The notes under the pieces are model-generated. The model ran no database searches and was not told the origin of the DNA. It saw nothing but the letters and a program-made list of their open reading frames with translations. Positions 968-12,435 of a stretch of DNA of 64,000 nt are shown piece after piece. Source of the DNA: a virus; IMG/VR virus record IMGVR_UViG_3300045988_072096. The stretch is one strand, 5' to 3'. Each line of letters begins with the position of its first letter. Within the stretch, counting starts at the first letter, position 1. Both the position numbers and the translations under genes were made by a program.

Positions 968-990
968 GCCTGGAAAGACAGGCATTTTCT
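968..990 (+). terminator. Intrinsic terminator-like hairpin
   Basis: GCCTG-GAAAGA-CAGGC followed by ATTTTCT. Confidence 0.5.
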
Positions 991-1267: not shown

Positions 1268-1984
1268 ATGAACTACAAGAAAATCAATTTCGAGATCGTA
1301 ACCAGAAAAGGTGGCGCAACAATTAAGGGTCAAGAAGGCGAATACGCCAACAAGTATTTGAAATTCGACTGCATCAATCCTATCAACATGGATGAGAGAC
1401 CTCATCGTGTTGTATGCTTTGCAGAAGCTGTAATAAAGTACTACGAAACTCTTCTTCCAGAAAGCAGAGGCGGTAAATTGCCGAACTCTGATGACTGGTC
1501 TGAAGACAAAATGCCTGTAAAGGATCGTATCTTCACTAACGGCGAAGCAGTTGAATATGACTTTGGTGGCCAGTATGTACAAAAGTACAGCCAAGACATC
1601 ATGGACGGCGAAAAGGTTATCCATGCTGCAGGCGACTACGTATGTATGAAGGGAACTAACTCTCCAAAGATCACCTCACGCAAGGTTGTATTCTGTCAGT
1701 ATTATTACGAGACAGAAGCAGTCCTAAACGAATGGGGTCAGCCAGAGATCGATCCAAACACATTCGCAACCAAAGTACGCATTGTCCACGACAAAGACGG
1801 TCTGCCAATCAAGCGTTGGGTTGAAGGCTGGGATCCTGAGACTGTAGGCAGCAACCTAAAGAACGCATTCTACATTCCTATCGCAGAATACGTTAAGGAG
1901 ATGGGTGCTTCTACTCCTAAAGAAACATCTGATGTAGCAAACCAAATTCCCAAAACCCAAGATGCAACAGACGATGATGCCTAA
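1268..1984 (+). CDS. Hypothetical protein (238 aa) with an acidic C-terminus (..DATDDDA)
   Basis: Long clean ORF that is GC-richer than its neighbours. Stop is TAA. A 10-bp hairpin (2018-2054 region) and a hammerhead follow. Confidence 0.8.
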   Translation: MNYKKINFEIVTRKGGATIKGQEGEYANKYLKFDCINPINMDERPHRVVCFAEAVIKYYETLLPESRGGKLPNSDDWSEDKMPVKDRIFTNGEAVEYDFGGQYVQKYSQDIMDGEKVIHAAGDYVCMKGTNSPKITSRKVVFCQYYYETEAVLNEWGQPEIDPNTFATKVRIVHDKDGLPIKRWVEGWDPETVGSNLKNAFYIPIAEYVKEMGASTPKETSDVANQIPKTQDATDDDA

Positions 1985-2088
1985 ACACTAAACCTATGCA
2001 GATAGCGAGAGCATATTGCTTATCGCTACCTGCTTGGTTCCAGTTAAAACGAATGCTATGATTAATAAGCAAAAATAAATATTTAAAA

Positions 2089-2154
2089 ATTCCCTGATGA
2101 GTCTTTGAAAATTAAGACGAAACATTCTCACACGCATTACGAGAGTGTCGGGAT
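2089..2154 (+). ncRNA. Hammerhead ribozyme HH1 (type I, canonical stem II)
   Basis: Core CTGATGA (2094-2100). Stem II is GTCTT/AAGAC. GAAA at 2119-2122. Stem III is ACATTCTC/GAGAGTGT (8 bp, one GU). Cleavage triplet is GTC, with predicted cleavage after C2149. Stem I is ATTCC/GGGAT. Confidence 0.8.
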
Positions 2155-2499
2155 ATCAAATAAGACATCAAATGGTTTTGTAGGCCTTAGGACCCATTAG
2201 TAAAAGACCTTCAGCAACTGTGATACGCTAAACAAATTGGTCATCATGGCACAGCATGGCGAACTATCGCTTAAATAGTAAGTATTTAGAATTGGATGGG
2301 CTCCCTCGACCAATCCAAATATAATAGAGGGTGTATTACTGTGCAAAAATTGTTTGAACAAATTGTTGACATGGTACAAGGTTTGTGAAGAACAATGTAA
2401 TACAAAACATGACTATCCTCAACAGTAGACATGTATTATTAAACTCGAACAATCTATTATTTTTGCAATAGATTGGCGACGTGACCCACGCGTAAAGTG

Positions 2500-2608
2500 G
2501 CGTCATCCAGGAGACGTAAAAATTCACACTGATGAGACTGGACGAAACACAGAGAGAAACTATTAACTCAACTTACCAGTAGTTAATAATGGCTCTGTGT
2601 CTGTGAGT
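2500..2608 (+). ncRNA. Hammerhead ribozyme HH2 (type I, stem II reduced to G-C plus a pseudoknot to an upstream hairpin loop)
   Basis: CTGATGA at 2529-2535 and GAAA at 2544-2547. Stem III is ACACAGAG/CTCTGTGT (perfect 8 bp). Cleavage triplet GTC, cleavage after C2601. Stem I is ATTCACA/TGTGAGT. Loop-II CTGGA (2538-2542) is complementary to TCCAG (2506-2510) in the loop of hairpin CGTC/GACG. Confidence 0.75.
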
Positions 2609-2712
2609 AACAATCACGACAAACACGTTTGCTTCGATTCTTTATGCATTCTTTGTGAAGGAGTTCTTCGGTTTTCTTTAAGTAAAAGAAAATGGAAGTA
2701 ACTCTGACAGAC

Positions 2713-2786
2713 GGACTTATAGCTCAGTTGGTTAGAGCAGCAGACTCATAATCTGAAGGTCGTGGGTTCAATCCCCTCTAGGTCCA
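2713..2786 (+). tRNA. tRNA with CAU anticodon (elongator Met or Ile2-type)
   Basis: Cloverleaf: acceptor GGACTTA/TAGGTCC, D arm GCTC..GAGC, anticodon loop CTCATAA, T loop TTCAATC. There is one mismatch each in the anticodon and T stems. Confidence 0.85.
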
Positions 2787-3011
2787 CTATAAATAACAAC
2801 TAAAACCCTCGCGATAGTATAAGGTAAATCGCTTTATCGATTATGGCAACATTACATTTAGAATTTACTATAGAACTTACTATGGAAAAAGATTACTGCT
2901 TTCATAACAAAATATGGACAAAATTATAGCATAACTGAATTTGAAAATATGATGAACAGTTAATCCGATCCTGGAGAGCGTACATGGGACCTTTCTTAAA
3001 AATAATATTAT

Positions 3012-3227
3012 ATGAGATACATTTATATTTTAGCTTATAAAGATATAAACGGAGATACGACAATATGTAAATTAGATATTAACCTCAATCGAATTATTCG
3101 ATTAGGATGTAGAGAAGCAGATCGTCATCAAGAACGTCGCTATATAATATATAGACAACCGATAACAGATGATGGTGAGATTTCTCTTTACTGCAAAATA
3201 TCTCCATCTACAACACATATCAACTAA
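3012..3227 (+). CDS. Hypothetical small protein (71 aa)
   Basis: ATG ORF with a TAA stop. Confidence 0.45.
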   Translation: MRYIYILAYKDINGDTTICKLDINLNRIIRLGCREADRHQERRYIIYRQPITDDGEISLYCKISPSTTHIN

Positions 3228-3265
3228 AAAATAATACAATTATACAAAGAAGCAGGTTATCTAAA

Positions 3266-3478
3266 ATGAAACGGAAACATCAATTTCATCGCGAAAATTG
3301 TTCCAGCACAATTCGCGAAGCATTTAAGGACATATTCGATAGAACTATAGTCCTAGCTGGAAAACACGCCTTTGAATGGTCTATTATGGTATGTGACCAT
3401 GGCGTAGTTACACGAATAACCTTCTCATGCAGAGAAGATGCTCGTAGGGAGTACACAAGATTGAAAAAATTAAAATAA
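3266..3478 (+). CDS. Hypothetical small protein (70 aa)
   Basis: ATG ORF with a TAA stop. Confidence 0.5.
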   Translation: MKRKHQFHRENCSSTIREAFKDIFDRTIVLAGKHAFEWSIMVCDHGVVTRITFSCREDARREYTRLKKLK

Positions 3479-3562
3479 TTCTTATGTTCCTGCCGTATTG
3501 GCAATTTTATTGTAAAAATCCCATTAGATTACATTCGTTGTGAAACGCATGTAATCATTTAA

Positions 3563-3631
3563 ACTCAGCCGAGGAGAGTATAAAATTGTGACTGACGAGA
3601 CTCGGACGAAATATGCATAACATATCTCACA
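3563..3631 (+). ncRNA. Hammerhead ribozyme HH3 (same pseudoknot architecture as HH2)
   Basis: CTGACGA at 3592-3598 and GAAA at 3608-3611. Stem III is ATATG-CATAA-CATAT. Cleavage triplet ATC, cleavage after C3626. Stem I is TGTGA/TCACA. Loop-II CTCGG (3601-3605) is complementary to CCGAG (3569-3573) in the loop of hairpin ACTC/GAGT. Stem I, the upstream hairpin and the pseudoknot all covary with HH2. Confidence 0.75.
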
Positions 3632-3740
3632 TAATAATAAATGAATTATATTTAATTTTACTCATATTTACCATTTTAGTGCATAATTGATAAATTTTAG
3701 TTGTGCGCACACCTGGTATGTGAATATAGGGTGTGCATTT

Positions 3741-3811
3741 TGGAGTATGGTGTAATGGTAGCACTACAGATTTTGGTTCTGTCAGACCTGGTTCGAGTCC
3801 AGGTACTCCAA
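3741..3811 (+). tRNA. tRNA-Gln (UUG)
   Basis: Clean cloverleaf: acceptor TGGAGTA/TACTCCA (U1-A72, as in bacterial tRNA-Gln), D stem GTGT/GCAC, anticodon stem ACAGA/TCTGT, loop TTTTGGT, T arm CCTGG-TTCGAGT-CCAGG. Confidence 0.9.
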
Positions 3812-3935
3812 CGAAATATTGTAACAGTTTTGCATGTTTTTACGTGAATAATAGTAGCGTATCTTAAAAACATGCTGGAGAGAGATCGAAAGGTCTATTT
3901 TAGCATTAATTAAAGTCCCTGCTAAGGACAATTTT

Positions 3936-4175
3936 ATGTCAAACAATCTTAATTCATTTCAAGGCAAACATGTACAAGGATTCTGTTCAGCTTCAGAATT
4001 AACAGTAGTAATCGATGGCGAAAAACATCAGGTATCTATACAATTTGATAGATTATATCAGGTACACGACGTATGCCCTCGTAGCATAGAGCTACCAACG
4101 AGAACTATTCATCTATTTGATGACTTACACGGTCGTCCAAAAGATACACTTACAGAATACTTTATGCACATCTAA
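3936..4175 (+). CDS. Hypothetical protein (79 aa)
   Basis: ATG ORF with a TAA stop. Confidence 0.5.
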   Translation: MSNNLNSFQGKHVQGFCSASELTVVIDGEKHQVSIQFDRLYQVHDVCPRSIELPTRTIHLFDDLHGRPKDTLTEYFMHI

Positions 4176-8307: not shown

Positions 8308-8714
8308 ATATAAGTCACATGATCAAAAGAATTGAATCTTAGCGAGTCATTGGAGCCTCGACGAGGTTAGTGTAGGCTAACTACGTCGACTGAGATGTAA
8401 ATCAAAAATGTTGAAAGCGACATGCAAGAGTCTTAGAGCCAGTCATATCACCGCTTATATTGAGCCAAATAAAGCCGTTTTAAAGCGTTATTAATCAATT
8501 GTGAAGTAGCTAATCACATGAGACCAAATAGCGTCTTAAAACGGCTTAAAACAGGCTTAAATCAAATGTTCTATCTGATCAATAGAACATTTACAAAGAA
8601 TAATAGCATGTATGAGGTAATTTACGAAGACGAGGGTTCGACTCCCTCATGGTCCACGTCTACATATACATTCTCATAAAATATAATTGATCCATCGTAA
8701 AACGAAAATTATCG

Positions 8715-8747
8715 CCAATGTGGTTCGTGAGAATAGCATTGGTTTTT
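8715..8747 (+). terminator. Terminator-like hairpin with conserved 14-nt loop (copy 1)
   Basis: CCAATGT / GGTTCGTGAGAATA / GCATTGG followed by TTTTT. Confidence 0.55.
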
Positions 8748-8890
8748 AACAAGGGCCATACTGGATTTGATTCGTAAAGGAAGTAAATACGTTAAGTGCT
8801 ACTATATAAATTCAACTGGCAACTATAATGTTGTAGACTACACACATGTAGCATGAGTGTAATCTGAGTGTTTCCTACTAAAGTGGAGGA

Positions 8891-8938
8891 AGATGTAATA
8901 CGATAGGCGTACATTGTGGTTCGAGCCCACTACATCTA
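8891..8938 (+). ncRNA. tRNA-like element lacking an anticodon arm (acceptor, D-like hairpin and T arm)
   Basis: Acceptor AGATGTA/TACATCT (7 bp). D-like hairpin TACG-ATAGG-CGTA. T arm GTGG-TTCGAGC-CCAC. Only CAT occupies the place of the anticodon and variable region. Confidence 0.55.
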
Positions 8939-8982
8939 CGAAATTTATTTGTCTATTGTTTATGAAAAGTTATTAGAGTAGT

Positions 8983-10580: not shown

Positions 10581-11009
10581 ATGGCATTATTTTGGTTCAT
10601 TTGCGGGATATTGTTAATATGCGGAATCGCCCGATATAACGAATCCAACAAATTGTTCTGGACATTGCTGGTATCCTTCGTAGGTACCTTTGCTGCTGCA
10701 AGCATCATTATTGCAACATGTAATAACGACACGAAGAACGTTGAAGCTAATGTTAGCCCCACACAGTTGTATGTAAGCACACAACCTTCATCGCTTTACG
10801 CCATGGACATGACTTACGATACCACTTACGATGTACCTACAAATACATCAGTCACTGTGAGTAAGGATTACTACATTAGTAACAACGTTCTTTCGGACAG
10901 CAGAGTAAGTAACTTAGAAGACAAACCACCACAATCCAAACAATTATGTTACAATATTTCGATACCTCCTAAATTAAGTAAGTTTAATCCAATTAAAGAT
11001 TCATCGTGA
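10581..11009 (+). CDS. Two-TM membrane protein immediately downstream of the sigma factor
   Basis: Its ATG is 1 nt after the sigma factor stop. TM segments LFWFICGILLICGIA and LLVSFVGTFAAASIIIA. An anti-sigma role is inferred from position only. Confidence 0.65.
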   Translation: MALFWFICGILLICGIARYNESNKLFWTLLVSFVGTFAAASIIIATCNNDTKNVEANVSPTQLYVSTQPSSLYAMDMTYDTTYDVPTNTSVTVSKDYYISNNVLSDSRVSNLEDKPPQSKQLCYNISIPPKLSKFNPIKDSS

Positions 11010-11067
11010 ACTACTTGTATATCACAATGAGTTCACAAGTTATTAACATTAAAAACATTTATCAAAA

Positions 11068-12435
11068 ATGACAAACAAAAATAAGAAGAGCGTTATTCCT
11101 ACCGCTCCTAGAACTAAGAAGGAAGAGACCGTAAATAACGGTGAGAAGACAAACACCACCGTAGAAGTAATTGATGCAAAATCGCTGAAGAACTTGACTC
11201 AGCCTAAACAGCAAGCAGGTCTTGATGCAAACCATCAAGTAGACATGCTGATGGGCCTTAAGGCCTATTTCCACGACGATCCGTCTGCAGAGGCTAAGTT
11301 CGGCAAAGACCCTGTTGATAAGATCAACCGTCTAACAGCGATTGGTTTCGCCACAGCATTCGTACAAGAGGCCTTTAACGGTGATAACAACTGGGCAGCT
11401 ACAATGCGTACAGCACAGTTGGAGGAACTTAAGGCAGTAGCTCCGATGATCGGTTTTACGATCGATACGAAACTGCTTCCAAAGCCTGACGAGGCGGGTA
11501 ACGTAGTTGTCCCTGCAAAAGCTGTAAAGGTAACTAAGGAGACCAAGAAAAAGCTAGAAGCAGAGAAGAAGGTTATCAACTCTACGCCGATCATTGATCC
11601 AACTAAGATCGAAAACGAAGATCAGCTGAAACAGAGCTTGACCTTTATGTTGTCCGATCCGTCTGTACGTCGTCCCTATGACAGAATCGTACGTGCAACT
11701 GAGTTTCTTCGCTCCTATCAGCTTTTACAGGCCAATGGTAACGAGGATACCACTACTTCCACTAACAGTAAGTCCATATCAGATCTTCTTGAGGAAGTAC
11801 GCGTGCTAGTCGGAGAAATCCCATTCTCTACTGTAGGTCTCAGTCACTTCATTTACCTCAAAACTTCAGAGTCAAAGAGTCCAATATTCGCATTCTGTCT
11901 GTTGCGCAATGCGTCTAAGAATAAGGACACTGATGTTGTTCCTATAAACGACAATGTAATTGCAGCAATGGTTCGTACTCTGGTAAACTGGACAAACGAG
12001 CCTAAGCTTATTGAAGCTACTAAGAGTCTTGAGCGTGCTAAAGCAGAACTTGCTGCCGGTAACACAAATCAAGACTATGTTGATGCTGTACAGCACAATG
12101 TAGATTATCACAAAGAGATATTTGAGGCAGTTACAAACTGTCCAACAGACTTTGCAGACAACTTGCTTGACAACCTTAATAGTGAAGATACAGAGCTGCA
12201 TAAAGCTACATGTCTAGCAGAAAGTGGCATACTTAAGTCATACTATCCTTCATTGGAGAGTGTTGACGCAGCCGGAGAACAGAAGGATCAGCTAATGCAC
12301 GACATACAGCAGCGTGCGGGTATCATCACCAATCTGTTCCGCGATCCTCTCTCACAGGATATCCGATACAGTGAGACAAACCTCTCTTATGAGGCACCTA
12401 AAGCAGAAGAAAAGAAGGCTGAAGAAAAAAACTAA
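11068..12435 (+). CDS. Hypothetical protein (455 aa), probably abundant
   Basis: Long clean ORF, GC-richer than neighbours, preceded by the conserved leader box. Confidence 0.8.
   Translation: MTNKNKKSVIPTAPRTKKEETVNNGEKTNTTVEVIDAKSLKNLTQPKQQAGLDANHQVDMLMGLKAYFHDDPSAEAKFGKDPVDKINRLTAIGFATAFVQEAFNGDNNWAATMRTAQLEELKAVAPMIGFTIDTKLLPKPDEAGNVVVPAKAVKVTKETKKKLEAEKKVINSTPIIDPTKIENEDQLKQSLTFMLSDPSVRRPYDRIVRATEFLRSYQLLQANGNEDTTTSTNSKSISDLLEEVRVLVGEIPFSTVGLSHFIYLKTSESKSPIFAFCLLRNASKNKDTDVVPINDNVIAAMVRTLVNWTNEPKLIEATKSLERAKAELAAGNTNQDYVDAVQHNVDYHKEIFEAVTNCPTDFADNLLDNLNSEDTELHKATCLAESGILKSYYPSLESVDAAGEQKDQLMHDIQQRAGIITNLFRDPLSQDIRYSETNLSYEAPKAEEKKAEEKN

Follow-up and report, generated by a model that had tools for sequence, protein, structure and literature searches.

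The 64,000-nucleotide (nt) stretch of viral DNA analyzed here (IMG/VR record IMGVR_UViG_3300045988_072096, hereafter called the window) probably encodes three self-cleaving hammerhead ribozymes on its + strand. HH1 (2089-2154) would be a classical type I hammerhead, and HH2 (2500-2608) and HH3 (3562-3631) would act as hammerheads of the RAGATH-1 class (Rfam RF03152). The window originates from a crAss-like phage; its first 8 kilobases (kb) are 92.5% identical to cr131_1, a member of the Crassvirales (Suoliviridae, Oafivirinae) with rhesus macaque faeces as its source. An earlier interpretation of this DNA, made without database searches and hereafter called the sequence-only reading, had proposed three complete type I hammerhead cores. 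These were found on the + strand as CUGAUGA, CUGAUGA and CUGACGA in HH1, HH2 and HH3, respectively, each combined with GAA. The A15.1-U16.1 pair could likewise be confirmed in all three motifs, and the nucleotide at position 17 is not a G (C2149, C2601, and C3626).

The whole window was scanned against Rfam 15 at curated thresholds, and only three transfer RNAs (tRNAs) and two RF03152 matches were obtained. HH3 scored 68.1 bits (3562-3631, E = 2.3e-09) and HH2 scored 62.5 bits (2500-2606, E = 4e-08) as compared to a gathering score of 56.3; both matches span all 77 model positions. The RF03152 consensus holds a 5' hairpin, a stem II of one base pair (bp), and two complementary loops. HH2 and HH3 are RAGATH-1 hammerheads, hence a catalogued variant, and their architecture is not new because the unusual feature that they display is the defining feature of RF03152. 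As in the family, a 4-bp 5' hairpin carries the loop AGCC(N)AGGA, an A-rich linker is present, the topology is that of type I, ACU(N)GGA is closed by a stem II of 1 bp, and the length of stem III varies; no essential difference was found. HH2 represents the short-loop form, in which the central pseudoknot pair is deleted; it has one additional U-A pair, and its stem III contains an insertion of 38 nt. The crAss-like genome background and the tRNAs close by are a matter of context, not of architecture. The RAGATH-1 hammerhead is reportedly described in the supplement of the 2017 article by Weinberg et al. (NAR 45:10811); the main text of that article does not mention RAGATH-1.

HH2 starts with a 5' hairpin (P0, 2501-2516) in which CGUC (2501-2504) pairs with GACG (2513-2516) and encloses the loop AUCCAGGA. 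Stem I consists of 7 bp including one G.U pair (2522-2528 with 2602-2608) and leads into the core CUGAUGA (2529-2535). G10.1 (2536) and C11.1 (2543) close loop II with the sequence ACUGGA (2537-2542). Stem III is formed by 2547-2554 and 2593-2600 with the 38-nt insertion at its apex, the A15.1-U16.1 pair corresponds to A2547-U2600, and the predicted cut is located between C2601 and 2602. The pseudoknot combines UCCAG (2506-2510) in the loop of the 5' hairpin with CUGGA (2538-2542) in loop II. In HH3, the 5' hairpin is built from ACUC (3563-3566) and GAGU (3576-3579), stem I from 3587-3591 and 3627-3631, and the core reads CUGACGA (3592-3598). Here, G10.1 (3599) and C11.1 (3607) close the loop II sequence ACUCGGA (3600-3606), stem III is formed by 3611-3615 and 3621-3625 including the A15.1-U16.1 pair A3611-U3625, and the triplet is AUC with the predicted cut between C3626 and 3627. 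The HH3 pseudoknot pairs CCGAG (3569-3573) with CUCGG (3601-3605).

Only 8 or 9 nt separate A9 from G12, namely GACUGGAC in HH2 and GACUCGGAC in HH3, and this interval is complementary to the loop of the 5' hairpin, as had been noticed before. The proposal of the sequence-only reading that a pseudoknot takes the place of stem II held for the covarying loop-loop helix, but stem II is not wholly absent: a stem II of several base pairs is missing, and the G10.1-C11.1 pair, which is invariant among RAGATH-1 relatives, alone closes a loop of 6-7 nt. The 5' hairpin and stem I are connected by an A-rich linker, UAAAAAU in HH2 and UAUAAAAU in HH3, the A and U columns of which are invariant in the alignment of these relatives.

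The relatives were collected by scanning IMG/VR with the pattern CTGAYGAGACTN{0,2}GGACGAAA, which matched 56 stretches. The alignment comprised 44 distinct sequences from which the variable apical part of stem III had been removed. Pairing, with the pseudoknot included, was observed in 93.7% of cells as compared to 68.2% with the 3' letters shuffled and 21-41% with the partners slid by 1-3 columns; within this value stems I and III are biased towards pairing, since the extraction demanded at least three pairs in each of them. The pseudoknot was paired in 44 of 44 relatives (100%), where the search pattern partly fixed loop II and had left the stem of the 5' hairpin and its loop strand free. 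The central pseudoknot pair is U-A in 10 sequences, A-U in five, G-C in three, and C-G in one, and both partners are absent in 25. Three pairs of the 5' hairpin showed changes on both sides. The covariation of the pseudoknot, the upstream hairpin, and stem I that had been read from HH2 and HH3 is seen across the 44 relatives, and stem III covaries as well. The RF03152 model scored 11 of 14 pattern-matched instances (13 loci) above threshold.

HH1 displays a canonical three-way junction. Stem I comprises 5 bp (2089-2093 with 2150-2154), the core CUGAUGA is located at 2094-2100, and GAA at 2119-2121. The 5-bp stem II that had been described as normal was found as GUCUU (2101-2105) paired with AAGAC (2114-2118) around the loop UGAAAAUU. 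Stem III consists of 8 bp (2122-2129 with 2141-2148) including the A15.1-U16.1 pair A2122-U2148, and the triplet GUC (2147-2149) places the predicted cut between C2149 and 2150, with C2149 lying 165 nt past the stop at 1984, just as the sequence-only reading had it. A generic three-stem hammerhead descriptor matched HH1 as the sole site on both strands of the window; dinucleotide-shuffled sequences gave 0.013 sites each on average, and no site as strong as HH1 appeared in 300 shuffles. The minimum free energy (MFE) fold of 2080-2163 coincides exactly with the three-way junction of a hammerhead (z = -2.2). Furthermore, at least 120 IMG/VR stretches contain the HH1-type pattern CTGATGAGTCTT..AAGACGAAAC. 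Among the matches listed, full hammerhead closure by stems I and III was found in 94 of 110 unique instances, as compared to 10.9 expected when the 5' strands of stem I were swapped between instances; 78 of the 110 carry a GUC triplet, and in 71 loop II is UGAAAAUU. The sequences of stems I and III vary freely from phage to phage. Based on the uniqueness of the descriptor match, the MFE fold, the IMG/VR occurrences, and the closure counts, we assign HH1, as judged from sequence, to a widespread phage class of type I hammerheads in which stem II and loop II are nearly fixed.

Each ribozyme is expected to fold during transcription. The 2'-OH of C17 would then attack its own phosphate, so that the upstream product ends in a 2',3'-cyclic phosphate and the downstream product begins with a 5'-OH, with cuts predicted after 2149, 2601, and 3626. 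In HH2 and HH3, stem II would be reduced to G10.1-C11.1, and loop II (ACU[N]GGA, 6-7 nt) would kiss the hairpin loop via 4-5 bp, with the conserved A-rich linker tethering that hairpin to the 5' strand of stem I. Most likely, the kissing helix extends stem II by stacking on G10.1-C11.1; it is also the most likely source of the tertiary interaction of stem I with stem II that allows fast cleavage at physiological Mg2+ concentrations. Of this contact, the covarying loop-loop helix was found, from which we infer the three-dimensional role.

In many hammerheads, the loop-loop contact is replaced by a pseudoknot; one of them, a type II ribozyme that was tested, has a stem II of 1 bp (Perreault et al. 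2011, PMC3088659). In that type II example (Figure 4 therein), as in HH2 and HH3, stem II is minimal and a Watson-Crick pseudoknot joins stems I and II; disruptive and compensatory mutations demonstrated that this pseudoknot is needed for fast cleavage (PMC3088659). It is formed by loop I and the 3' tail, whereas HH2 and HH3 are of type I and their loop II kisses a separate 5' hairpin. In terms of mechanism, the type II example is the closest precedent for HH2 and HH3. HH1 resembles the bacterial and phage type I hammerheads (Perreault et al. 2011, PMC3088659; Rfam clan CL00010) in its core, three helices, and open stem I, and also follows the prophage pattern of that study in being located between co-directional phage genes with further hammerheads nearby. 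Unlike the Rfam Hammerhead members of this clan, it remains below threshold, and stem II and loop II hardly vary within its class (GUCUU-UGAAAAUU-AAGAC).

Judged from their context, the three ribozymes probably cut one long transcript into separate units, a proposal to which we give about an even chance. The units would be the upstream messenger RNA (mRNA), a non-coding, structured RNA spanning 2150-2601 (about 450 nt), a segment from 2602 to 3626 with tRNA-CAU and small open reading frames (ORFs), and finally tRNA-Gln with the downstream genes. As these are type I hammerheads, the folded ribozyme would stay on the 3' end of each upstream product. An intergenic location was found for 53 of 54 RAGATH-1 hammerheads and, among the matches listed, for 118 of 122 of the HH1 type. 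Where both flanks could be scored, the flanking genes were co-directional in 32 of 36 RAGATH-1 cases and in 63 of 78 listed HH1-type matches. This intergenic, co-directional setting fits the cutting of polycistronic transcripts. Several hammerheads were reported to flank genes in prophages, and native transcripts of about 2 kb were found to be cleaved (Perreault et al. 2011, PMC3088659).

cr131_1 and related contigs from two clades share the conserved 345-nt spacer between HH1 and HH2. RNAalifold applied to eight spacer sequences predicted a multi-hairpin structure of 59-60 pairs, which corresponds to a putative structured non-coding RNA core at 2292-2499 on the + strand. In the alignment from which the structure was derived, 96.8% of the pairs were formed as compared to 34-42% with slid partners, 17 pairs keep pairing through changes on both sides, and several invariant G.U pairs fit the + strand only. 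The spacer contains no + strand ORF of at least 40 amino acids (aa) and matched no Rfam family at E ≤ 10. All spacer homologues have an HH1-type ribozyme upstream and a RAGATH-1 ribozyme downstream. This order of ribozyme, spacer, and ribozyme is kept in the window, in the related loci L044/L188, L010/L194, L037, L182, and L195, and, with core variants, in L179; the tRNA-CAU gene follows HH2 only in the window's own clade. Accordingly arranged homologues with a CCGAUGA core (both copies of L179 and the downstream copy of L195) were missed by one pattern scan. Outside the two clades, no relative of the spacer was found: the IMG/VR scan detected only three related contigs, a metagenome pattern scan gave 18 matches of which 11 were unrelated, blastn against phages found cr131_1 only, and the covariance model R1 recovered only its own training sequences from 1.8 megabases (Mb) of phage loci. 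From the alignments, the conserved module looks like ribozyme, structured RNA, and ribozyme, not like ribozyme plus tRNA.

Additionally, we have analyzed the distance to tRNA genes. The predicted cut at 2601 is located 112 nt upstream of tRNA-CAU and that at 3626 is located 115 nt upstream of tRNA-Gln, in agreement with the approximately 110 nt given by the sequence-only reading. RAGATH-1 hammerheads with a tRNA at most 250 nt downstream were found only in the window, in cr131_1, and in one related contig (085724). Among the matches listed, three of 128 HH1-type hammerheads have a tRNA within 400 nt, as compared to about four expected from tRNA density. These proximity counts rule out closeness to tRNAs as a family trait for both ribozyme classes; the tRNA association is specific to this phage lineage. 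In L092 (3975, - strand) and L099 (7023, + strand), HH1-type hammerheads start 106-115 nt upstream of tRNA-Gln(UUG), an arrangement that echoes HH3 and its tRNA-Gln with a different hammerhead class. As a separate observation, the gut phage contig L008 carries a RAGATH-14 match (183 bits), a tRNA (CUA), a RAGATH-1 hammerhead, and a pistol ribozyme within 1.5 kb (10797-12308, + strand). It appears that ribozymes, tRNAs, and RAGATH motifs occur together in clusters repeatedly.

Two other functions may be considered for the ribozymes. HH1 and HH2 may mainly excise the structured non-coding RNA 2150-2601, with separation of mRNA and tRNA as a secondary effect. This explanation, which overlaps in part with the cutting of one transcript into units, we regard as possible but doubtful. 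A 5'-OH and a 2',3'-cyclic phosphate would mark the excised RNA, and its 3' end would retain the HH2 fold. The order of ribozyme, spacer, and ribozyme kept across related contigs, the restriction of the downstream tRNA-CAU to one clade, and the double-sided changes in 17 pairs together with strand-specific G.U pairs and the lack of an ORF all argue for it; but only two or three independent lineages are involved, the structure comes from the same alignment in which pairs were counted, the covariance model found no further relatives in the phage loci, and a signal read at the DNA level could account for the strong sequence conservation instead. Only tentatively can HH1 and HH2 be regarded as scissors releasing a structured RNA that is restricted to this phage lineage and about 450 nt long; if they are, the released ends could confer unusual stability or permit RtcB-type ligation into a circle. 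It is still less probable, and in our view unlikely, that HH2 and HH3 are tRNA-maturation ribozymes setting 5' leaders, as a counterpart of theta ribozymes at 3' trailers. Both precede a tRNA on the same strand by 112-115 nt, the arrangement is kept in cr131_1 and contig 085724, the hammerheads of L092 and L099 are similarly spaced, and ribozymes beside phage tRNAs have a precedent (PMC10879173). However, most RAGATH-1 hammerheads have no tRNA nearby, the HH1-type matches listed do not exceed the chance expectation, a leader of about 110 nt would be left for ribonuclease P to remove, and the spacing is not conserved, being about 147 and 86 nt in cr131_1. The theta ribozymes, which are similar to the ribozymes of the hepatitis delta virus (HDV), are likewise small, self-cleaving, and located beside tRNA genes of gut Caudoviricetes (Kienbeck et al. 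2024, PMC10879173), but they have a different fold and were linked by the authors to processing of tRNA 3' trailers, whereas HH2 and HH3 are separated from the tRNAs by more than 100 nt on the 5' side and belong to a family without a general tRNA association. No HDV-type family gave an Rfam match at E ≤ 10 in 1900-3900, which leaves this region outside the theta class.

Several observations weigh against three active ribozymes that divide one transcript. HH1 remained below all Rfam thresholds: the RAGATH-1 model gave 26.3 bits (E = 0.12), and the best match in clan CL00010 was Hammerhead_3 with 21.9 bits as compared to a threshold of 48.5 (E = 0.14) and in the wrong register. The Rfam covariance models were thus positive for HH2 and HH3 (with RAGATH-1) and negative for HH1; the negative result weakens the membership of HH1 in an Rfam family and does not lower its identity as a hammerhead. 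For HH3, the nested MFE fold does not exceed shuffled sequences in stability (z = -0.36) and prefers the pseudoknot pairing to the 5' hairpin. A scan for sigma-70 promoters was uninformative (32 promoter-like sites as compared to 23 expected). Furthermore, otherwise intact homologues with all helices and the pseudoknot carry a CCGAUGA core (U4 to C), namely both copies of L179 (about 1500 and 1915, + strand) and the RAGATH-1 copy of L195 (- strand). Judged by these variants, cleavage may be weakened or dispensable in some phages, and they temper the claim that it is always required; rare core variants are known among hammerheads, some of them active (Perreault et al. 2011, PMC3088659). A 2019 review regarded the purpose of bacterial and phage hammerheads as unproven (PMC6765202). 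A literature search for work that connects hammerheads to crAss phages or to the tRNAs of phages gave no relevant result. The U4-to-C variants and the low Rfam scores of HH1 would also be expected if the motifs had lost cleavage, as decayed relics, or resembled hammerheads by chance, but no catalytic core position is altered in any of the three motifs, covariation preserves each helix as well as the pseudoknot across many phages, and the chance expectation is negligible according to Rfam E-values and descriptor shuffles, so that we consider this explanation very improbable. Even less credible is a conservation due to protein-coding sequence or DNA signals. Short minus-strand ORFs (1994-2137, 2336-2527, and 3627-3764) do overlap the motifs; however, these are purely mechanical calls, and the sequences vary through compensatory base-pair substitutions and paired deletions, not in a codon-like manner, which rules out the minus-strand ORFs as an explanation. 

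Almost without exception, ORFs of at least 150 aa are encoded by the + strand from position 1 up to about 28 kb and by the minus strand beyond that point. All three motifs sit within the + strand block, among small co-directional genes, in a gene-poor stretch of about 2 kb with two tRNAs. Three ribozymes, two tRNAs, a RAGATH-12-like element, and the conserved structured RNA cluster within 1.6 kb. Both tRNAs were identified by ARAGORN and Rfam on the + strand, the one with anticodon CAU at 2713-2787 (67.6 bits) and tRNA-Gln (UUG) at 3741-3812 (60.8 bits). On the minus strand of 2713-2787, Plastid-ycf2 gave a match of 44 bits, which is under the threshold; this match corresponds to the tRNA in antisense and was dismissed as an artefact. 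The candidate RAGATH-12-like element (3852-3930, + strand) adjoins the 3' side of tRNA-Gln, and the next ORF starts at 3936. It is below threshold, with 36.3 bits for RF03149 as compared to a gathering score of 75 (E = 1.1e-3 for the window and 3.5e-6 for 201 nt), shares UAGUAGC, CUGGAG, CGAAAG, and GCAUUAA with the RAGATH-12 consensus, and is 96% conserved in cr131_1. A single terminator-like hairpin was detected at 3491-3503, upstream of HH3. Neither Rfam (E ≤ 1), nor the generic descriptor applied to both strands, nor the RAGATH-1 pattern revealed any further ribozyme in the 64 kb, and a PHROGs search matched no family for seven small neighbouring proteins.

The annotations of cr131_1, cr272_1, cr273_1, and cr53_1 show no feature under the ribozyme matches; the ribozymes are unannotated in these related published crAss-like genomes. 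Since the ribozyme architecture is already present in Rfam, the results add little on RNA structure, and their value lies in annotation and context. If the proposed cutting is true, a crAss-like phage with three ribozymes dividing one transcript and natural core variants in its relatives would provide a usable test system.

A few differences between the related genomes were observed in addition. The gap between tRNA-CAU and HH3 is about 775 nt in the window and about 385 nt in cr131_1, and a 71-aa ORF (3012-3227, + strand) has no counterpart in the cr131_1 annotation. At 8567-8947 (+ strand), ARAGORN predicted a permuted transfer-messenger RNA (tmRNA) with the tag peptide GNYNVVDYTHVA; the Rfam model tmRNA_permuted gave 40 bits, under the threshold of 47, and the annotated tmRNA of cr131_1 is located at the matching position (L001 5784-6147). 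Directly upstream of the HH1 homologue, L179 and L195 carry the hairpin GCCTGGAAAGACAGGC followed by ATTTT, and the printed flank of L182 has only its 3' part (ACAGGC) at that position. In the window, this hairpin is found at 968-983 (+ strand), 1.1 kb upstream of HH1; from this placement, the 238-aa gene 1268-1984 looks like an insertion relative to the L179, L182, and L195 phages.

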